A stretch of 64,000 nt of DNA from an uncultured Acidobacteriota bacterium (GTDB lineage Bacteria; Acidobacteriota; Thermoanaerobaculia; UBA5066; Gp7-AA6). Location of the stretch: positions 398,784-462,783 of the forward strand of contig CAWINF010000003.1 in NCBI GenBank assembly GCA_963837495.1. The letters run 5' to 3'. This document shows, piece by piece, positions 942 through 14,515 of this stretch. How positions within the stretch are numbered: the stretch's first letter is position 1; each line of letters begins with the position of its first letter. The notes beneath the pieces are model-generated. The model made no database searches, was not told where the DNA came from, and saw only the letters and a program-made list of their open reading frames with translations. The position numbers and the translations under genes were made by a program.

Positions 942-1928
942 GTGTCCCGCCGCATCGCGTTCCTGACCGGAGGCACCGGTTTCGTCGGTGGCCACGTTCT
1001 CCGAGCGCTCTGCGCGCAAGGATGGGCGGTGCGCGCGCTCGTACGAACGATGCCGGACTTTCCGCCGGATCTTCCCGTCGAGACCGTGGCCGGGAACCTC
1101 TCGGAGGGGTCCGGTGAGATTCTCCGAGAAGCCCTGCGGGGCTGCGAAGCGATCGTGCACGTGGCGGGGCTGGTCAAGGCGCGCTCGCTCGAGGATTACC
1201 GGGAGGTCAACGTCGCCGGGACGCGGCGCCTCGTCGCCGCGGGAACGGACTCGGCGCGCGAAGCGCTGTTTCTGCTCGTCTCCAGTCAGGCCGCCGCCGG
1301 ACCGGTCCGCGACGGCCGGCCGGTCCGGGAAGACGATGCTCCGCGGCCCGTCTCCTGGTACGGCCTTTCCAAGCTCGAGGCGGAAGAGGAGGTCGCGCGC
1401 GGATGGCGGGGACCCTGGTTCGTCCTGCGGCCAGGAGTCATCTTTGGACCGCGAGATCGCGGTCTCCTGAGGCTCTTCGCGGCGGCTTCCCGAGGCTGGG
1501 TTCCCACGCCCGCGGCAAGGCGCAGGATCCAGATCATCCATTCTTCCCGCGCCGCCGCCGGCATCGCCCGGGCAGCCGCGCGTCCCGACCTGTCCGGCAA
1601 GAGGGGTTTTCTCTGCGACTCGGAACCAATCCGGGTCCGCGACCTCGCGGCGGCGATCGCTCGATTACCGGAGCGCCATGCCCGTCTCGTGCCGGTCCCC
1701 GATCTTCTGGTTCGACTTGCCGGAGCTGTCGAAACGCTCCGGGAGGCCGTCACCGGGCGTTCTCGCCCATTCAACGCGGACAAGGCGCGGGAGATCCTGG
1801 CCGGCGATTGGCTTTGCGAACCGGCTTTGATGCAGAAACATCTTGATCTGCCTCCTCCGTCTCCTCTGGAGGACACCCTGGCCGAGACGTGGAATTGGTA
1901 CAGACGACACCGGTGGCTCTCTTTGTAA
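942..1928 (+). CDS. NAD(P)-dependent epimerase/dehydratase family (SDR); candidate ceramide reductase CerR.
   Basis: N-terminal Rossmann motif (M)SRRIAFLTGGTGFVGGHV and a downstream YxxxK-type SDR region. The listed ORF starts at 780; the likely real start is GTG 942 (alternative ATG 864). It lies immediately upstream of an Spt homolog. Confidence 0.8.
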   Translation: MSRRIAFLTGGTGFVGGHVLRALCAQGWAVRALVRTMPDFPPDLPVETVAGNLSEGSGEILREALRGCEAIVHVAGLVKARSLEDYREVNVAGTRRLVAAGTDSAREALFLLVSSQAAAGPVRDGRPVREDDAPRPVSWYGLSKLEAEEEVARGWRGPWFVLRPGVIFGPRDRGLLRLFAAASRGWVPTPAARRRIQIIHSSRAAAGIARAAARPDLSGKRGFLCDSEPIRVRDLAAAIARLPERHARLVPVPDLLVRLAGAVETLREAVTGRSRPFNADKAREILAGDWLCEPALMQKHLDLPPPSPLEDTLAETWNWYRRHRWLSL

Positions 1929-1980
1929 AATTTGCTAAGATCCCGGGTCCAGGGCTCGACGCTAACTGCTGGGAGGACTG

Positions 1981-3219
1981 ATGAGCAAACCTGCTCCGGC
2001 GGCAAGACTCTTGGACGAAAGTCCAGTCCCTTTCTTCGACAAGTGTTACCGGTACGACGTGGCGGAACGGGTTCGCCAGGCGGGGGTTTATTCCTTCTTC
2101 CGGGTCATCGAGTCGGCCCAGGACCCCGAGGTCTCGATCGGAGGCCGCCGGCTCATCATGCTCGGGTCCAACAACTACCTCGGGCTGACCAACCATCCCC
2201 GGGTCAAGGAGGCAGCCATCGAAGCGATCCGCCGCTATGGCTCCGGGTGCGCGGGATCCCGCTTCCTGAACGGCACTCTCGACCTTCACGTGCTTCTGGA
2301 GGAGCGGCTCGCGGAGTTCACGCGCCAGGAGGCCGCGATCACGTTCGCGACCGGATTCCAGGTCAATCTGGGGGCGATCTCCTGCCTGGTCGGTAAGGGG
2401 GACACGGTCTATCTCGACAAGCAGGATCACGCCTGCATCATCGACGGGGCGCGCCTCTCCTTCGGCGAAGTCCGCAAGTTCCGCCACAACGATCCCGCCG
2501 ACCTGGGGCGTCAGATGCGGCAGGACGGCGCCAGGGGCCGCTTCATCGTGGTGGACGGGGTCTTCTCGATGGAGGGGGACATCGCGCCCCTTCCGGAGAT
2601 CCTGGCCGCGGCCCGCGCATCCGCCGCCGGAGTCATGGTGGACGATGCCCACGGCATCGGCGTGCTCGGACCGACCGGCCGCGGCACCTGCGAGCATTTC
2701 GGCGTGGAGGAGGAAGTGGACCTGATCATGGGCACCTTCTCCAAGTCTCTGGCTTCCGTGGGAGGGTTCATCTCCGGGGACGCCACCATCATCGACTACA
2801 TCAAGCACAAGGCCCGCACCATGATCTTCTCCGCCGCTCCTCCTCCCGCGTCCGTGGCCGCCGCGCTGGCGACCCTGGACATCATCGAGGAGGAGCCCGA
2901 ACGCCGCGCGCAGCTCTGGCAGAACACGCTCTTCTTCCGGGAAGGGTTGAAATCCCTCGGGCTGGACACCGGCAACTCGCAGACCCCCGTCGTTCCGATC
3001 GTCGTGGGAGAGGATGCCCTCGCGCTGGAGATGGTGCAGCGCCTCCACAAAGCCGGAGTCTTCGTCAACTGCGTCCTGTCGCCGGCCACGCCGCCCGGAC
3101 GCGCGCTCATCCGCACGTCGCTCATGGCCACGCACACCCGCGGGCAGCTCGCGCGCGCGCTCGAAGCGATCGAGAACGTCGGGCGGCAGGTCGGTCTCGT
3201 GCGGACCGTCGAGGTGTGA
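1981..3219 (+). CDS. spt: Serine palmitoyltransferase-like alpha-oxoamine synthase (PLP-dependent).
   Basis: Motifs FFRVIESAQD, GSNNYLGLT, GSGCAGSRFLNGTLD and the PLP-lysine motif GTFSKSLAS, plus a LIRTSLMATHT tail. These are recalled from Sphingomonas Spt; the similarity appears closer to Spt than to BioF/Kbl. Confidence 0.8.
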   Translation: MSKPAPAARLLDESPVPFFDKCYRYDVAERVRQAGVYSFFRVIESAQDPEVSIGGRRLIMLGSNNYLGLTNHPRVKEAAIEAIRRYGSGCAGSRFLNGTLDLHVLLEERLAEFTRQEAAITFATGFQVNLGAISCLVGKGDTVYLDKQDHACIIDGARLSFGEVRKFRHNDPADLGRQMRQDGARGRFIVVDGVFSMEGDIAPLPEILAAARASAAGVMVDDAHGIGVLGPTGRGTCEHFGVEEEVDLIMGTFSKSLASVGGFISGDATIIDYIKHKARTMIFSAAPPPASVAAALATLDIIEEEPERRAQLWQNTLFFREGLKSLGLDTGNSQTPVVPIVVGEDALALEMVQRLHKAGVFVNCVLSPATPPGRALIRTSLMATHTRGQLARALEAIENVGRQVGLVRTVEV

Positions 3220-3234
3220 GGGTCTCCTCCGCCG

Positions 3235-4390
3235 GATGACCTCGATCGAGCCGCTTTCACGGTCGAAGCGGGACCTCTCACGTTTCTTCGACGTCGCGGA
3301 TGGGATCTACCGGGGCGATCCCAACTGGGTTCCACCCTTGCGCGACGACCTCGCGAAGGCGTTCTCGGAGAAGAACCCGTTCTTCCGCCATGCGGAGATG
3401 CAGCTTTTCGTGGCGCGCCGCGGCGGGCAAGACGCGGGCAGGATCGCCGCGATCCTGGACCGCCACCACAACGACTTTCACGGGGAGAAGACGGGCTTCT
3501 TCGGGTTCTTCGAATCGCAGAACGACCGGAGCGTGTCGGACTCCCTCCTCGACGCCGCGGCCGGCTGGGCGCGCCATCGCGGCATGGAGACCCTGCGCGG
3601 ACCCGCGAACCCGAGCCTGAACGACGAGGCCGGCCTGCTCGTGGAGGGATTCGACAAGCCGCCCGTCCTGATGATGACCTACAACCCGCGATACTACGTT
3701 GACCTGATCGAGGCGGCGGGGTTTCGAAAAGCGAAGGACCTCCTCGCCTACTGGTTCGAGATCGGGCCGGAGCCGCTCGCGCGCTTCGCCCGAATCAACG
3801 AACGCTTCCGCAAGCGCGCGGCCGACATCGAAGTCCGCAAAGTCTCCAAGCGGAGCCTGATGGCGGATCTCCCGAAAATCCGGGAGGTCTACAACGACGC
3901 CTGGGAGAAGAACTGGGGCTTCGTGCCGATGACCTCAGAGGAGATGGATTTCATGGCCGCCCGGTTGAAGCCGCTCCTCGACGAGAACTTCCTCTTCCTC
4001 GGCGAGACAAGAAGATCCGACGGATCTCTCGAGCCGATCGCCTTCATGCTCTCCCTGCCCGACTACAACGCCGCCATCCAGCCGCTCGGCGGAAGGCTTC
4101 TGCCTTTCGGCTGGCTGAAGTTCCTCCTGGGACTGAAGAGGATCAAGACACTCCGCGTGGTCACGCTCGGCTTGAAGAAGGACTTCCGCATGCGCGGCAT
4201 CCAGTCCCTCATGTTCGAAGAAGGCCTCAGGGCCGCGCTCAAGCGCGGCCTCACCGGCTGCGAGGTCTCCTGGATGCTCGAGGACAACGACCTCGTGCTG
4301 CGGTCCGTCCGCCTGTGGGGCGGGAAACACTACAAGACCTACCGCATGTACGACCGGCCTCTCGAATCACTCCGCGTGAATCGGTCGTAG
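3235..4390 (+). CDS. GNAT-fold N-acyltransferase (~385 aa); candidate bacterial ceramide synthase (bCerS).
   Basis: ATG at 3235 lies 15 nt after the spt stop. The protein has an acyltransferase-like core (YNDAWEKNWGFVPMTSEEMDF...). Assignment rests on synteny with spt and the SDR gene. Confidence 0.65.
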
Positions 4391-5223
4391 AGGCGGTCTC
4401 CCAGGGGGACCGTCACCACGGCGAGGAGCGCGCCCGCGATCACGTCCACGACGTAGTGGTACCGGCAATAGACCGTCGAGAGGACGAGGCAGACCGCAAT
4501 GGGGAGCAGCCACCAGAAGGCGTCGCGCGCGCGCTGAAAGGCCGCGAGGAGTACCACCACGGCGATCATCGTGTGCCCGGAGGGGAAGACGTCGAACTTC
4601 GTTTTCTCCAGCTCATCGAGCGTCGAAGAGATGGCGAGGGAGACGCCGGTCGTCGTGAGCGGCACCGCGTGTCGGGAGGCCAGGGCAACGCGCGGGCCGA
4701 GAGCAGGCAACGCGAAGTATCCGGCGTAGGAAACGACATACGCCAGGGTGAGCGTGAAAATGAAGCGGCGCGCCGCGGGGCGGCTTCTCCTCCAGAGGAC
4801 GACGCCCAGCGCGATCGCGATGAAGTAGTAGGTCAGGTAAGCGACGAAGAAGAAGTCCGTCAAGACGGGACTCACGAAACGCTGAAGCTCGATCGTCGGG
4901 TCCGCGTGGAAGAGCCAGCGGTCCGCCGCGATCAAGAGGTCGTCCCGCGCGCGGGGGCGCGCCGCGGCAATCAGGGGTCCGAGGTTCTCGTAGAGGATGG
5001 GCACGAACGCGATCGGGTAGAAGTTGACGAGCACGCGAAGCGCCGGAGGGAGCCGATCCTCCCTCCGAGCGGCGGCCATCACGATCAGGACGCCCGCCGC
5101 CATGAGGGCGTAGCGCGTCAGGATTCCGGCCGGGTCGGCGACGCGGCCGTCCAGCCACAGCGCGAGCCCGGAAAGGAGGGCCAGAGTCAACAGATTCAGT
5201 GCTTCGAGGGGGCGCGGCTTCAC
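4339..5223 (-). CDS. PAP2-superfamily membrane phosphatase/transferase.
   Basis: Multiple TM segments; PAP2 motifs KxxxxxxRP-like, PSGHT and YCRYHYVVDV. Convergent with the GNAT gene, with a 52-nt 3' overlap. Confidence 0.8.
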   Translation of the reverse strand: MKPRPLEALNLLTLALLSGLALWLDGRVADPAGILTRYALMAAGVLIVMAAARREDRLPPALRVLVNFYPIAFVPILYENLGPLIAAARPRARDDLLIAADRWLFHADPTIELQRFVSPVLTDFFFVAYLTYYFIAIALGVVLWRRSRPAARRFIFTLTLAYVVSYAGYFALPALGPRVALASRHAVPLTTTGVSLAISSTLDELEKTKFDVFPSGHTMIAVVVLLAAFQRARDAFWWLLPIAVCLVLSTVYCRYHYVVDVIAGALLAVVTVPLGDRLYDRFTRSDSRGRSYMR

Positions 5224-8885: not shown

Positions 8886-10423
8886 GGGGCCAACCCAAGC
8901 CCACACCCTCCTCCTGGAGGACGCTGGCCGCCGGCGTCCTCTCGGGTCTCCTCTACGCCCTGGCCTTCCCGCCGCTCGAGTGGGTGCTCTTGCTGCCGCT
9001 GGCTCTCGTGCCCTGGATGCTCGCGCTCGCGGCGGAAGAAAGCCGTGCCCGCGCCCTCCTCTCCGGGTTCGTCTTCGGCCTCGCCTACTGGTGCGCTTCG
9101 ATCCCGTGGATCTTCTACGTCGTCACGCGTTACGGCGGCCAGTCCGAAGTCATGGGCGTCATCTGCGTGCTCATCCTGGCCGCGATTCTGGCCGAGTGGC
9201 CCGCGGTCGTGGCCTGGGGAGTCGTCTCCTGCGCGAGGGCGGGCTCGTGGAGGCGTTTCGCCGCCTTTCCGTTGCTCTGGATGGCGGCCGAGCACGCGAG
9301 GTCCTTCGTCTATGGAGGGTTCCCCTGGAATCTGACCGGGCACGCTCTCTATCGCCACCCGGTCTGGACGCAGTCCGCGTCCGTGTGGGGCGTTTACGGA
9401 GTCGGCCTCGCCGTCATGGCCACGACGGCCCTTCTGGCGGCATCGATCCGGAAGCGCAGCGCGCGCCCCATCCTGGCGGCCGCGGCCCTGGCGCTCGCCG
9501 CCGGAGGCTGGGGAGCGCTGCGGCTGGCCGCGAAGCCCGAGGGAGGCGCGCCTCTGCCGGTCGCTCTTCTCCAGCCGAACCTTTCGCAGGAGTCCCGCCT
9601 GGCCGCCGGCGGTGAAGCGAGCAACTATCTCGCCGTGATCGAGTCCGCGCGCGCGGCCGCGACTTCGAAGCCGTCGCTCATCGTGATCCCCGAGTCGGCA
9701 TTTCCAACCTACTGGCAGAGGAGCGAGCGGATGCGGCGGGACTTGACCGGGATCGCGCGGGAGAGCGGCGGAGCCGTTTTGTTCAACGACGTCCAGGAGG
9801 AGCCGGACGGGCGCTATTACAACGTGGCGCGCCTCTGCGGACCGGAGGGGCTTCTCGGAAATCCCTATCGCAAGGTCCACCTCGTCCCCTTCGGCGAGTA
9901 CGTTCCGCTGCCCAGGCTCTTCTTCTTCGTGCGGCAGATCTCGACGGAGATCGGGGCTTTCTCCGCGGCGTCGCGCCCGGCGACGATCGGATGGGGGCCG
10001 CTGTCGGTCGGCCTCGGGGTCTGCTATGAGGTTCTGTATCCTTCCCTCGCTCGGGCGGAGGTCGCGCAGGGAGCCAACCTTCTGGCGACGATCTCCAACG
10101 ACTCCTGGTACGGGCGGGCGGGCGCGCAGCCCCAGCACTTCGCGGGAGCCGTCCTGAGGGCGGTCGAGAACCGCCGGTATCTTCTGCGCGCGGCGATCAC
10201 GGGCATCTCGGGCATCGTGGACGAGAAGGGGCGCATCCTCCAGGAGCTGGGAGAGAACCGCTCCGGCATCCTGCGCGGAACCGCCCGGCTTCTCAAGTCT
10301 GAGACCGCCTGGACGCGATGGGGTTACTGGCTGCCCCGTCTGGGCGATGCCGCGGGGCTCGCCGTGCTACTCTTCGGCGCTGTCCGACTCCTCGGCTCTC
10401 GAAAGCCGAGGGGCGGCAGCTGA
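8882..10423 (+). CDS. lnt: Apolipoprotein N-acyltransferase.
   Basis: Multi-TM N-terminus plus a CN-hydrolase domain (IVIPESAF..., GVCYEVLYP, NDSWY). GTGA overlap with lipA. Confidence 0.9.
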   Translation: MRGQPKPTPSSWRTLAAGVLSGLLYALAFPPLEWVLLLPLALVPWMLALAAEESRARALLSGFVFGLAYWCASIPWIFYVVTRYGGQSEVMGVICVLILAAILAEWPAVVAWGVVSCARAGSWRRFAAFPLLWMAAEHARSFVYGGFPWNLTGHALYRHPVWTQSASVWGVYGVGLAVMATTALLAASIRKRSARPILAAAALALAAGGWGALRLAAKPEGGAPLPVALLQPNLSQESRLAAGGEASNYLAVIESARAAATSKPSLIVIPESAFPTYWQRSERMRRDLTGIARESGGAVLFNDVQEEPDGRYYNVARLCGPEGLLGNPYRKVHLVPFGEYVPLPRLFFFVRQISTEIGAFSAASRPATIGWGPLSVGLGVCYEVLYPSLARAEVAQGANLLATISNDSWYGRAGAQPQHFAGAVLRAVENRRYLLRAAITGISGIVDEKGRILQELGENRSGILRGTARLLKSETAWTRWGYWLPRLGDAAGLAVLLFGAVRLLGSRKPRGGS

Positions 10424-10432
10424 GATCATCCA

Positions 10433-11552
10433 ATGACCGAACGCGACGACCTGATCGCCCGCCTCAAAGCCGCCTCGGAGCGACTCCTCTCGCTCCGGGG
10501 CTATCTTTGATCAGGACGCCGCGCGGAGCGCGCTCGAGGGACTGAGGCGCAAGGCCGCCGCACCGGATTTCTGGTCCCGCCCGGAAGAAGCTCAGGAAGT
10601 CCTTCGACAGAGCCGCGCGCACGAGCGCAAGCTCGACACGGCCGGCAGCCTGGACGAGCTCCGCGACGAGCTCGACACCTTCGCCGAGCTGCTCAAAGAA
10701 GGGGAGCCCGCGGAGCCGGACGCCCGGGAGGCGTTGGGAAAAGCCTCGGCGTTCGCCGACGAGCTGGAGCTGTCGGTCAAGATGGGATCGCCCGAGGACC
10801 CCAAGAACGCCTGGCTCATGATCCACGCCGGCGCGGGCGGCACGGAATCGCAGGACTGGGCGGAGATGCTGCTGCGCATGTACCTGCGCTTCTGCGAGCA
10901 GCGCGGGTGGAAGGCCGAGCTGATCGACCGGCAGGACGGCGAGGAAGCGGGCTTGAAGAGCGCGACGCTCCACGTCGTCGGGGACCACGCTTATGGCTAC
11001 CTGAAGGGAGAGATGGGGGTCCATCGCCTGGTGCGCATCTCCCCCTTCGACGCGGCGCAGCGCCGCCACACCTCCTTCGCGTCGATCTACGTCTCGCCGG
11101 AGGTAGACGAGGACATCCAGATCGAGATCGCGGACAAGGACCTGCGCGTGGACACCTACCGCTCGAGCGGCGCCGGAGGCCAGCACGTCAACGTCACGGA
11201 CTCGGCCGTGCGCCTGACGCATCTGCCCACCGGAATCGTCGTGACGTGCCAGAACGAGCGCAGCCAGGGGCGCAACCGCGATCTGGCCATGAGGGTGCTG
11301 CGCGCTCGCCTCTACCAGCGGGCGCTGGACGAGCGACGGGCGGACGAAGAGAAGCTCGTGGGTGATAAGAAATCCATCGAGTGGGGAAGCCAGATCCGAT
11401 CGTACGTGCTCCACCCTTACCGGATGGTCAAGGACCACCGCACCGGGTACGAAACCGGCGACACCGACAAGGTCCTGGACGGCGGCCTGGCTCCCTTCAT
11501 CGAGGCCTACCTGAAGTCCCGGGCCGATTCCGGCCGCGCCGTCGGAGCCTAG
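10433..11552 (+). CDS. prfB: Peptide chain release factor 2, with a programmed +1 frameshift.
   Basis: Frame 0 reads MTERDDLIARLKAASERLLSLRGYL then TGA at 10508. Shifting +1 at CTT (10505-10507) continues as DQDAARSALEGLRRKAAAPDFWSRPEEAQ... through the GGQ-containing RF2 body (SPFDAAQRRHTSF, RSSGAGGQHVN). The site context CGGGGC-TAT-CTT-TGA is near-identical to E. coli. Confidence 0.9.
10495..10511 (+). promoter_or_regulatory. prfB autoregulatory +1 frameshift site (internal SD-like GGGG, then TAT CTT TGA).
   Basis: Sequence cGGGGc TAT CTT TGA t. The in-frame UGA is followed immediately by the RF2 reading frame in +1. Confidence 0.85.
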
Positions 11553-13078: not shown

Positions 13079-13149
13079 CAGAAAAGAGAATGCGCCGAGC
13101 CAAGGCCAATGCCAGCGACCGTTCACGCATCCGATTCTAGGCCACGGTC

Positions 13150-13616
13150 CTCGGCTCATGGAAGCCAGCCGTGTCCGGACACGGCTCGTGGAGAGATCTC
13201 GATCGACAGAGGAGAGTTGGTGGCCCCAACGAGACTCGAACCCGTGCCGCGGCCTCCGGGGGGCTCGGGGGGCACCACGTGCCCCCCGCTCATGGAGCCA
13301 GCCGTGTCCGGACACGGCTCGTGAAGAGATCTCGATCGACAGAGGAGAACTGGTGGCCCCAACGGGACTCGAACCCGTGCCGCGGCCTCCGGGGGGCTCG
13401 GGGGGCATCACGTGCCCCCCGCTCATGGAGCCAGCCGTGTCCGGACACGGCTCGTGGAGAGATCTCGATCGACAGAGGAGAACTGGTGGCCCCAACGGGA
13501 CTCGAACCCGTGCCGCGGCCTCCGGGGGGCTCGGGGGGCACCACGTGCCCCCCGCTCATGGAGCCAGCCGTGTTCGGACACGGCTCGTGGAGAGATCTCG
13601 ATCGACAGAGGAGAAC
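13150..13616 (-). repeat. Tandem array of tRNA-Glu-derived units, period 133 bp. Three perfect units start (plus-strand coordinates) at 13218, 13351 and 13484; a partial unit covers 13150-13217.
   Basis: On the minus strand each unit ends with the exact tRNA-Glu T-arm and acceptor 3' strand plus CCA (ggccgcggcacgggttcgagtcccgttggggccacca). This is preceded by two perfect GC hairpins (GGGGGGCAC..GUGCCCCCC and AGCCGUGUCC/GGACACGGCU) and a palindromic GATCGAGATCTC segment. Confidence 0.85.
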
Positions 13617-13691
13617 TGGTGGCCCCAACGGGACTCGAACCCGTGCCGCGGCCTTGAAAGAGCCGTGTCCTAACCACTAGACGATGGGGCC
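13617..13691 (-). tRNA. tRNA-Glu(UUC).
   Basis: Minus strand GGCCCCATCGTCTAGTGGTTAGGACACGGCTCTTTCAAGGCCGCGGCACGGGTTCGAGTCCCGTTGGGGCCACCA. It has a full cloverleaf, anticodon loop CTTTCAA and an encoded CCA. Confidence 0.9.
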
Positions 13692-13854
13692 CGAAAAAAC
13701 GATAGCACGCATGTCATATTGAGCCGAACTGCGAGGGACTCGAACCCGTGCCGCGGCCTCCGGGGGGCTCGGGGGGCCACATGGCCCCCCGCTCAAATCA
13801 GCCAGGCGTGTCGGCTCCGCAGGAGCCGTGTCCTAACCACTAGACGATGGGGCC
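13692..13854 (-). ncRNA. tRNA-Glu-like pseudo-tRNA or structured RNA unit (163 nt).
   Basis: Intact tRNA-Glu 5' half (GGCCCCATCGTCTAGTGGTTAGGACACGGCT). The anticodon loop is replaced by a 7-bp stem with a UGC triloop. A ~60-nt GC-hairpin insertion and a T-arm follow, but the acceptor 3' strand is non-complementary. It ends GCGUGCUAUCGUUUUUUCG. Confidence 0.5.
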
Positions 13855-14018
13855 CGAAAAAACGATAGCACGCATGTCATATTGAGCCGAACTGCGAGGG
13901 ACTCGAACCCGTGCCGCGGCCTCCGGGGGGCTCGGGGGGCCACATGGCCCCCCGCTCAAATCGGCCAGCCGTGTCGGCCGCGTAGCGGCCGTGTCCTAAC
14001 CACCTAGACGATGGGGCC
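13855..14018 (-). ncRNA. Second tRNA-Glu-like pseudo-unit (164 nt), paralogous to 13692-13854.
   Basis: Same architecture. The replaced anticodon arm differs by compensatory pairs (CGGCUCC-UGC-GGAGCCG versus CGGCCGC-UAC-GCGGCCG). Confidence 0.5.
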
Positions 14019-14110
14019 TCGGACCGAGAAAAACGATAGCACGGGGATCTCATTCCGCGCCGAGCAGCGCGGGACTCGAACCGGTACCGCCGGCGCCGGT
14101 GAGCCCCTCA
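14019..14110 (-). repeat. Partial third tRNA-like unit (T-arm-like GGTTCGAGTCC, CUAUCGUUUUUC spacer and GC hairpins).
   Basis: Contains gcgggactcgaaccggtacc and the perfect palindrome ccctctcccgccgggagaggg. Confidence 0.4.
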
Positions 14111-14146: not shown

Positions 14147-14179
14147 CTAAAAACAGAAGTGCCGGCTTGCGCCGGCACT
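14147..14179 (-). terminator. Rho-independent terminator for the small secreted-protein gene.
   Basis: Minus-strand hairpin AGUGCCGGC-GCAA-GCCGGCACU followed by UCUGUUUUU, about 25 nt after the stop at 14204. Confidence 0.7.
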
Positions 14180-14203
14180 CGATGATCCGTGATCGGCGGA
14201 GTC

Positions 14204-14515
14204 TTACTTCGAGGGGGCCTTGGTGGGCTCGGGCTTGGCGGGCTCGGTTTCCATCTTCGTCTCGGTGCTCTTCTTGGTGGTGGTCTTGCCCTTCTTGGTC
14301 ACCTTCTTGTGGGCCTTCTTCTTGGTGGTCATCTTCTTGCCCGGTTCCTTGGTCTCAGTCGTGGTCGAGGTGCTCGTGGACTGGGAGCCGGTGACCGGGT
14401 TCGTCGACTTCTTCGACTCCGTCGAGGACTTGGTTTCCGTGGTCTGCGCGAAGACGCCGGTCGGGAAGGCCAGCGCCACCGCCAGGGCCACGAACTTCAA
14501 CAGGGACTTCTTCAT
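14204..14515 (-). CDS. Small secreted Ser/Thr/Lys-rich low-complexity protein (103 aa).
   Basis: Strong RBS AAAGGAGAG 7 nt upstream of the ATG. Signal peptide MKKSLLKFVALAVALAFPTGVFA and a downstream terminator. Confidence 0.75.
   Translation of the reverse strand: MKKSLLKFVALAVALAFPTGVFAQTTETKSSTESKKSTNPVTGSQSTSTSTTTETKEPGKKMTTKKKAHKKVTKKGKTTTKKSTETKMETEPAKPEPTKAPSK

Follow-up and report, generated by a model that had tools for sequence, protein, structure and literature searches.

tRNA-Glu-derived, hairpin-rich modules around the tRNA-Glu(UUC) gene in a clade of Acidobacteriota: an apparently undescribed, lineage-specific family

The sequence analyzed in this work, hereafter called the window, is a stretch of 64,000 nucleotides (nt) of contig CAWINF010000003.1 of an uncultured Acidobacteriota bacterium, and the element in question is an array of repeated units built around its tRNA-Glu(UUC) gene. 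Two of these units, U1 and U2, located upstream of the tRNA gene, are members of an apparently undescribed, lineage-specific family of tRNA-Glu-derived, hairpin-rich modules flanking tRNA-Glu(UUC) in a (Thermoanaerobaculia-like) clade of Acidobacteriota. The anatomy of the units, their conservation, the compensatory changes within them and their concerted evolution with the cognate tRNA were all demonstrated. Regarding their role, we tentatively favor, at somewhat less than an even chance, the explanation that the modules may be selected RNA structures in the leader (U units) and the trailer (D units) of tRNA-Glu, expanded here by unequal crossing-over. Selection on RNA structure is favored because non-tRNA segments are conserved, the hairpins are compensated, the linker is constrained and a promoter-like motif precedes the units.

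The whole array lies on the minus strand and comprises, in descending coordinates, U0, U1, U2, tRNA-Glu(UUC), D1–D3 and a partial D4. The initial annotation, made from the sequence alone, had drawn attention to two paralogous units of 163–164 base pairs (bp) preceding tRNA-Glu, and these were recovered (Tandem Repeats Finder (TRF): period 163, 95% matches). The extent assigned to them (13692-14110) has to be amended: the segment 14019-14110 is a degenerate third unit, and the downstream D array (13143-13616) was not included. The latter was indicated by TRF as a repeat with a period of 133, 3.8 copies and 97% matches (13154-13654). No further copy was found within the 64-kb window using R1, a covariance model built from D units. 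The particular elements of the array, together with their hairpins (HP1 and HP2) and R1 scores, are as follows.

14019-14110, minus strand: U0, a degenerate third unit reduced to its 3' part, about 92 nt; T-arm-like GGTTCGAGTCCC at 14071-14082, then GCGCTGCTCGGCGCGG
14029-14043, minus strand: promoter-like motif of U0, GTGCTATCGTTTTTC
13855-14018, minus strand: U1, 164 nt; closed stem-loop 13975-13991, insert X 13922-13974, HP2 13933-13954, T arm 13898-13909, promoter-like motif 13858-13872; R1 53.6 bits
13692-13854, minus strand: U2, 163 nt; closed stem-loop 13812-13828, insert X 13759-13811, HP2 13770-13791, T arm 13735-13746, promoter-like motif 13695-13709; R1 52.5 bits, Rfam tRNA model 16.8 bits
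13617-13691, minus strand: tRNA-Glu(UUC), 75 nt, functional-looking, CCA encoded; found by ARAGORN and Rfam (RF00005, 67.1 bits); cloverleaf as minimum free energy (MFE) structure
13484-13616, minus strand: D1, 133 nt; HP1 13566-13585, HP2 13532-13554; R1 111 bits
13351-13483, minus strand: D2, 133 nt; HP1 13433-13452, HP2 13399-13421 (single apical C/A mismatch); R1 112.6 bits
13218-13350, minus strand: D3, 133 nt; HP1 13300-13319, HP2 13266-13288, T loop GAGTCTC; R1 112.9 bits
13143-13217, minus strand: partial D4, about 75 nt; linker, HP1 13167-13186 and GGCUUCCAUGAGC, then unique flank; R1 28.8 bits; end of the tandem duplication

In U1 and U2, tRNA-Glu positions 1–30 are unaltered except for a 1-nt insertion in the D-loop of U1, which agrees with the earlier view that the 5' part of the tRNA, its D-arm and a T-arm are kept. 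The anticodon loop is replaced by a closed stem of 7 bp with a triloop, CGGCCGC-UAC-GCGGCCG in U1 and CGGCUCC-UGC-GGAGCCG in U2, exactly as it had been read, with both sides changing together in two compensated pairs. This is followed by insert X, a GC-rich segment with the GC hairpin HP2, containing GGGGGGCCAUGUGGCCCCCC and a second C-run; a GC-hairpin insertion had been expected at this place and is present, but its length is 53 nt rather than about 60 nt. Downstream of the insert, tRNA positions 39–63 with the T arm were found, and the 3' strand past the T arm is CUCGCAGUUCGGCUC, for which pairing with GGCCCCA is impossible in both units, as the initial annotation had stated for the acceptor 3' strand. 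U0 shows 74% identity to the 3' 58 nt of U1/U2.

In more general terms, the U layout consists of tRNA positions 1–43 with the loop closed, then a core shared with D units, and then the T loop joined to sequence normally found upstream of the tRNA. The shared core, i.e., (A)CGGCU-GGCU, a short linker to UGAGC, the G6/C6 hairpin HP2, GA(N)CCCCCCGGA and tRNA positions 39 onward, amounts to tRNA-Glu with an insert of approximately 48 nt replacing the anticodon loop (positions 32–38). A U-type closing helix (GGCUG/CAGCU) was also considered; it is paired in 70% only and was not adopted. U1 and U2 end in the spacer ...AUAUGACAUGCGUGCUAUCGUUUUUUCG, a copy of the promoter-like region. The conserved spacer at the unit end had already been recognized; it is, most simply, a duplicated promoter region and not a terminator of the unit. 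In all loci, each tRNA-Glu and each U unit has the motif GTGCTATCGTTTTT at 12–22 nt on its 5' side, and we infer that this motif is an extended -10 promoter element.

The closed stem was found in 17 instances, from at least 11 loci, and in three types (CGGC-UCC/GGA-GCCG, CGGC-CGC/GCG-GCCG and CGGC-UGC/GCA-GCCG), with a loop of the U-N-C form; 16 of the 17 are fully paired, and the remaining one, from L114, is mismatched at the base. An alignment that comprised 14 U units revealed that the closed helix is 99% paired, with U-A in eight and C-G in six units at pair 31-39, and G-C in ten and C-G in four at pair 32-38. A comparison with homologs from related genomes, by which the proposed fold could have been refuted according to the initial annotation, showed two-sided changes of the stem rather than random ones. 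Two-sided compensatory changes across homologs, which are the general criterion for a selected RNA structure, were found both in the closed stem and in the apical pairs of HP2. Nearly all variants of HP2 in D units form a perfect 7–9-bp stem, of which the apical pairs occur in three Watson-Crick forms (A-U in 15, G-C in nine and C-G in seven sequences of a model-fitted alignment). At locus L128, the closed stem-loop is unchanged despite a badly degraded insert.

U1 and U2 differ from each other by seven substitutions and one indel; all substitutions are placed at unit positions 31–55, and 108 nt are identical. Four of the seven substitutions constitute two compensated pairs, exactly at tRNA positions 31-39 and 32-38. 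In a simulation with seven randomly placed substitutions, at least two compensated pairs together with an intact stem were obtained in 15 of 3,000,000 trials (about 5 per million). Since both stem types occur in other genomes and the differences are confined to a single patch, U1/U2 are a mosaic of two old stem types; with both types old and the rest of the units homogenized, it was not in this genome that the compensation originated. The claim that compensatory substitutions argue against plain neutral pseudogene decay stands, with the correction that they record old stem types and not recent changes.

Downstream of the tRNA gene, each D unit is composed of a G-poor linker (32 nt in D1), HP1, GGCUCCA, HP2, GAGCCCCCCGGA (in D1) and tRNA positions 39–76, including ACCA. 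HP1 is GCCGUGUC...GACACGGC; its 5' arm is complementary to tRNA positions 22–32 and its 3' arm copies positions 23–30. At its 3' end, the unit has a complete T arm, and then the acceptor 3' strand with the discriminator and CCA. The MFE structure of the 82-nt segment that runs from GGCUCCA to CCA is cloverleaf-like, with HP2 in the position of the D-arm and a normal T arm, and in this structure the acceptor-type helix is of 7 bp, GGCUCCA/UGGGGCC (GGCUYYY/UGGGGCC as the family form); for the entire D1, the MFE structure is HP1 plus the cloverleaf-like fold with ACCA. Within the acceptor-like helix, the G-run is invariant; the changes seen in its 5' partner are almost exclusively exchanges of C and U, which leave a C-G or a U.G pair. 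RNAalifold applied to D units paired the G-run with the second C-run and GGCC (39–42) with the acceptor 3' strand, with covariation of zero, and this predicted fold is one among several equally unsupported options. The 82-nt segment of D1 (13484-13565) is labeled as tRNA-Gly(ccc) by ARAGORN, and labels of this kind (tRNA-Gly(ccc), 82 nt, or tRNA-Arg(ccg), 75 nt) were also given to D units of other loci, i.e., L110 21-103, L141 2149-2223 and L124 6226-6300. None of these is a real tRNA, and all are rejected by the tRNA model of Rfam.

A first scan with a sequence pattern, covering one genome per species, yielded 107 stretches and six homologous arrays. These were located on six GTDB contigs of metagenome-assembled genomes (MAGs), all of Acidobacteriota or Thermoanaerobaculia (L012, L018, L023, L028/L052 and L079). 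A second pattern scan, of metagenome contigs, added approximately 20 further loci, giving about 25 in total, including ones from soil metagenomes. Every locus contains tRNA-Glu followed by one to three D units, and one to three U units are present upstream in a subset (the window, L012, L018, L052/L135, L108, L114, L121, L123/L140, L128, L137 and L139). The gene order RND pump, small Lys/Thr-rich secreted protein, [U], tRNA-Glu, [D] is common to the window and to L128, L018, L052 and L114. The RND pump of the window shows 83% identity to its counterpart from L128 and 63–65% to those from L018, L052 and L114; as the order is kept at 63–65% identity, the arrangement is old, and the window is special only in its expanded copy number. 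Model R1 scored D units at 85–124 bits, U units at 45–62 bits and real tRNA-Glu genes at 39–43 bits.

Conservation of D units was profiled as mean pairwise identity across 14 representative loci. It amounts to 0.93 for HP1, 0.79 for the non-tRNA core and 0.96 for the tRNA-derived 3' half, and the conserved segment which is neither palindromic nor tRNA-derived is UGAGC ... GAACCCCCCGGA. The linker between CCA and HP1 (e.g., 13585-13616 in the window) is random in sequence (identity of 0.57, versus 0.53 for shuffled sequences). Its length is 30–32 nt in 13 of the 14 loci (22 nt in L124), and its composition is 16% G and 37% C, versus 34% G and 33% C in the window. Such a strand-asymmetric segment of constant length and free sequence looks like what would be expected of a single-stranded RNA spacer.

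Several observations concern the assembly and the variants of these arrays. Contigs DATFQY010000060 and DATFQY010000052 (L028 and L052, both from MAG SMAG_U9343) overlap and both end inside repeats, this assembly having been broken by the array, and the contigs of L108, L110, L118, L135 and L136 also stop within the array; as contigs break inside repeats, the copy numbers derived from short reads may be underestimates. At L130 (stored 2182-2256 and downstream), degenerate U/D-like modules (HP2, T arm and a UGGCGACCA end) follow tRNA-Glu(CUC), and this array is without an intact UUC gene.

According to the reading that we favor, the U and D units would be transcribed together with the tRNA as a structured leader and trailer, and selection would act on the RNA folds. 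The closed stem of U units and HP1 of D units (the latter sequestering a copy of tRNA positions 23–30) would hold the tRNA-derived strands in local hairpins, by which the leader and trailer copies would be prevented from mispairing with the real tRNA in the shared precursor. The D unit would close this precursor with a tRNA-like end of the RNase P/CCA type (3' NCCA). The two U and 3.8 D copies of the window would then represent a recent expansion by unequal crossing-over, with U1/U2 as a recombinant mosaic.

A number of points weigh against this reading. The mechanism of insulation and processing is itself one that we infer. The acceptor-like helix of D units is inseparable from an alternative helix, UGGCUUCC/GGAGGCCG (both are 83–90% paired), and the arms of HP1 as well as most helix partners are invariant, which means that no evidence of covariation comes from them (HP1 arms showed zero variation in 19 of 19 sequences). 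The MFE z-scores of the units, from -0.5 to -1.7, are unremarkable; they are uninformative because the sequence is GC-rich and the real tRNA likewise reaches only -1.1. In U units, HP2 is often mismatched and is imperfect in most variants, outer copies have a truncated or degenerate 5' half, and the L114/L137/L139 clade has lost the T arm. Of the fold proposed earlier as maintained, the closed stem is kept across lineages, and other parts of the U unit decay. Two or three independent compensatory events would be enough to account for the three stem types, and maintenance of perfect hairpins can take place on DNA as well. At several loci, the flank that follows the last D unit shows 50–97% identity to the linker after the tRNA, a likeness that reveals tandem duplication and gene conversion, which keep the tRNA-derived parts alike without selection. 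On the other side, HP2 decays in U units while the closed stem persists, so the closed stem is not accounted for by a mutation process that repairs palindromes in general.

Evidence for processes at the DNA level was also found at this locus. The D-loop variant (AGAGG/AGUGG) and the discriminator (A/G) of the U and D units usually match the tRNA of their own locus, which means that the evolution of the tRNA-derived parts is concerted with that of the cognate tRNA. One unit of L121 (oriented ~870-985; L121:895) has the anticodon loop CUUUCAA and the T arm intact, lacks the GC-rich insert and has its acceptor 3' strand replaced by the upstream flank; this unit is a straightforward product of unequal crossing-over, with the exchange between the T arm and a T-arm-like sequence located upstream. 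At L120 (stored 1119-4816), a 3.7-kb insertion, also present in L131 and L125, lies between the complete tRNA-Glu and a partial copy, GCUCUUUCAAGG..., which begins within the anticodon stem and is followed by a D unit. This insertion looks like an integrated element with an anticodon-loop crossover; in Pfam it gave no match to an integrase or to any other family, and its four open reading frames (ORFs) were without a match. In L012, an IS3-family transposase (2815-3681) is placed directly after the D unit. The sequence GGTNCGATTTCGAGGGGTCC..TTTTC, about 25 nt past CCA, is common to L012 and L140 (~1770-1830) and may be the end of an element targeting that site. Another motif, GTCATCCTGAGCGAAGC(G/C)GAAGGATCT, occurs just 5' of the outermost promoter-like motif in L018 (~4110-4140), L052 and L140; it is absent from the window and may be a dispersed repeat that has nothing to do with the array.

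Three other explanations were weighed against selected leader and trailer structures. In one of them, which we consider unlikely, D units (perhaps also U units) would be genes for free-standing tRNA-like small RNAs, released by RNase P and 3' trimming, CCA-ended and anticodon-less, acting in trans as mimics. Such RNAs might serve a tRNA-binding enzyme or toxin as decoy or adaptor, or might act as an external-guide-like partner, in which case the UGGGGCC-ACCA strand of D could pair with the unpaired GGCCCCA of U. D units indeed have U(-1)/G(+1), a 6–7-bp acceptor-like helix, a perfect T arm, a discriminator matching that of the cognate (A or G) and CCA; they are labeled as tRNAs by ARAGORN, give weak sub-threshold matches to the mascRNA model, are separated by R1 from real tRNAs (85–124 versus 39–43 bits) and are found in every locus, with or without U. 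However, the acceptor-like helix shows no two-sided covariation in an unbiased alignment and the competing helix fits equally, the acceptor 3' strand with CCA is lost in some terminal D copies (L028/L118 and L112), and no conserved protein partner is encoded nearby, the downstream genes varying by locus. The broader proposal, that D units (with U as a derived upstream form) could represent a new class of bacterial anticodon-less, CCA-ended, trans-acting tRNA-like RNAs, released by RNase P and present clade-wide in Acidobacteriota, is possible but doubtful, and equally doubtful is that such an RNA would be composed of the tRNA-Glu 3' half and a conserved domain of the GC hairpin and C-run.

Recombination of DNA alone might also have produced the array, through scars or landing sites of integrative elements and unequal crossing-over, with the hairpins being DNA palindromes (originating from template switching, or serving as protein or recombinase sites) and having no role in RNA. 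We regard this as improbable, on a balance of several observations. The locus is a recombination hotspot, as seen from the 3.7-kb insertion of L120/L131, the transposase of L012, the varying downstream genes and the varying copy number, and partial tRNA gene fragments (att-site remnants) at tRNA genes are usually left by integrating elements (PMC9897764). In each of the three hairpins, tRNA-like sequence is paired to its own complement (the arms of HP1 and of the closed stem are tRNA-derived, and the HP2 arm merely resembles the acceptor 3' end of tRNA), and the linker after the tRNA resembles the flank past the last D. Against this, D units lack the anticodon-loop overlap typical of a true anticodon-loop attR, which is kept in the partial copy of L120; the repeats are 96 nt apart, with no intervening element or integrase; U units duplicate the 5' half, unlike integration; and viral contigs are empty for the tRNA 3' half and the insert. 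The G-poor linker of constant length and the C/U-only variation opposite G are strand-specific features not needed by duplex DNA, and in U units HP2 decays and the closed stem does not. Finally, the units could be neutral partial pseudogenes, tandem duplicates kept tRNA-like by gene conversion, with compensation as a chance mosaic. It is true that the D-loop variant of U usually equals that of its own tRNA, that U1 and U2 are identical over 108 nt with the differences confined to one 25-nt patch, and that unit L121:895 shows plain unequal crossing-over. This reading is nevertheless disfavored and seems very unlikely: the closed loop, insert X and the 5' arm of HP1 have no tRNA donor, yet they are conserved where flanking intergenic DNA has been randomized, 16 of 17 closed stems of three pair types are fully paired, and two compensated pairs arise by chance about five times per million trials.

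Comparison with known families provided no ready identity for the units. A search of Rfam 15 (at the gathering threshold and at E<=10) returned only real tRNAs and sub-threshold noise and no family for the units, and literature searches found no description of this arrangement. The units are not canonical tRNAs (RF00005, gathering threshold of 29 bits): U2 scored 16.8 bits, and U1 and the D units had no match at E<=10. Instead of the 7-nt anticodon loop, the loop is of 3 nt in U and is absent in D; as regards the acceptor stem, the ends of U1/U2 are unpairable, and D is without the tRNA 5' strand, having GGCUCCA as a substitute. The mascRNA-like mimic (RF01684, gathering threshold of 42.5 bits) was rejected as well, with 16.9–20.5 bits for D units and 24.9 bits for the real tRNA, and neither ARAGORN nor Rfam indicated a transfer-messenger RNA (tmRNA) in the window. 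The suggestion that the units might act as an attenuator was not upheld, since no terminator-like site occurs at the hairpins, which lack a U tract; the sole intrinsic terminator (14157-14180) is placed after the upstream gene. REP/IS200-type hairpins (no other copy within 64 kb) and type III toxin-antitoxin repeats (a toxin gene is absent, and most genomes have a single copy) were rejected too, and a C+.G-C triplex of HP2 with the second C-run, a G-quadruplex, an i-motif and a small ORF after GGAGG were set aside on sequence.

An att-site remnant in the strict sense was also rejected, as the D repeat begins at position 38/39 without the anticodon loop, and U repeats the 5' part, whereas the genuine-looking partial copy of L120 begins at position 29-30 and retains CUUUCAA. 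The repeats do not bracket an element either, being 96 nt apart, and the real flanking ORFs encode a DUF1684 protein and a small secreted protein. Scans of viral contigs gave no match, whether made with the tRNA 3' half, a shorter segment of the 3' end or HP2 plus the C-run, and an origin from a phage attP is therefore unsupported. Sublocation classes of tRNA-targeting integrases were reportedly distinguished by Williams in 2002. The array resembles att remnants in that direct repeats of the tRNA 3' portion lie beside an intact tRNA gene, at a locus with insertions (L120, L012), but it differs from them in the conserved non-tRNA insert and hairpins present in many genomes and in the duplicated 5' halves.

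With tRNA-like non-coding RNAs, i.e., mascRNA/menRNA (RF01684), the tmRNA domain and the Y RNA YrlA (PMC4201824), the D unit shares an acceptor-type helix, a T arm and a CCA-type end; it is also without a decoding anticodon loop and adjoins a precursor from which RNase P could release it. Unlike these RNAs, it has a sequence that comes from the adjacent tRNA-Glu and is kept identical to it. Y RNA gave no match in the Rfam scan of the array region, and no search was aimed at rsr. Functional tRNA spacers and polycistronic precursors separated by RNase P (PMC2190699) are similar in having conserved structured sequence in a tRNA unit, with a possible processing function or a role of its own, but such spacers are without tRNA-derived repeats, a closed anticodon arm or a CCA-ended mimic. 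Some likeness also exists to the split and permuted tRNA genes of archaea and algae (PMC3978253), in which separate 5'- and 3'-half-like units carry complementary GC-rich extra sequence. In the array analyzed here, in contrast, the units are separated by an intact tRNA-Glu, U has its anticodon destroyed and D contains none, and D often occurs without U. To our knowledge, bacteria do not have a bulge-helix-bulge splicing system. As for functional tRNA spacers, the 3'ETS-leuZ sponge of E. coli is an example.

In the neighborhood of the array, the gene at 14204-14515 (minus strand) encodes a 103-amino-acid (aa) protein with a signal peptide and a low-complexity body rich in Thr, Lys, Ser and Glu, which has no Pfam match and is followed by the terminator mentioned above. 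A conserved counterpart of this protein is encoded directly 5' of the array in L012, L018, L052, L079, L108, L114, L121, L128 and L140. At 10318-11552 (plus strand), a release factor 2-like ORF (10734-11552), whose only start is an internal TTG, is preceded by an ORF of 75 aa (10318-10545) in another frame, an arrangement which, we presume, would be consistent with the programmed +1 frameshift that is usual for prfB.

If the folds are functional, the modules would constitute a tRNA-derived structured RNA family that is physically and evolutionarily tied to its parent tRNA gene, and they would illustrate a route from partial tRNA duplicates to stable non-decoding structures. If the units are instead products of recombination, the locus would exemplify concerted evolution and palindrome maintenance around a tRNA gene. 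Recognizing the family would improve tRNA annotation in Acidobacteriota, where D units are mislabeled by ARAGORN as tRNA-Gly or tRNA-Arg.

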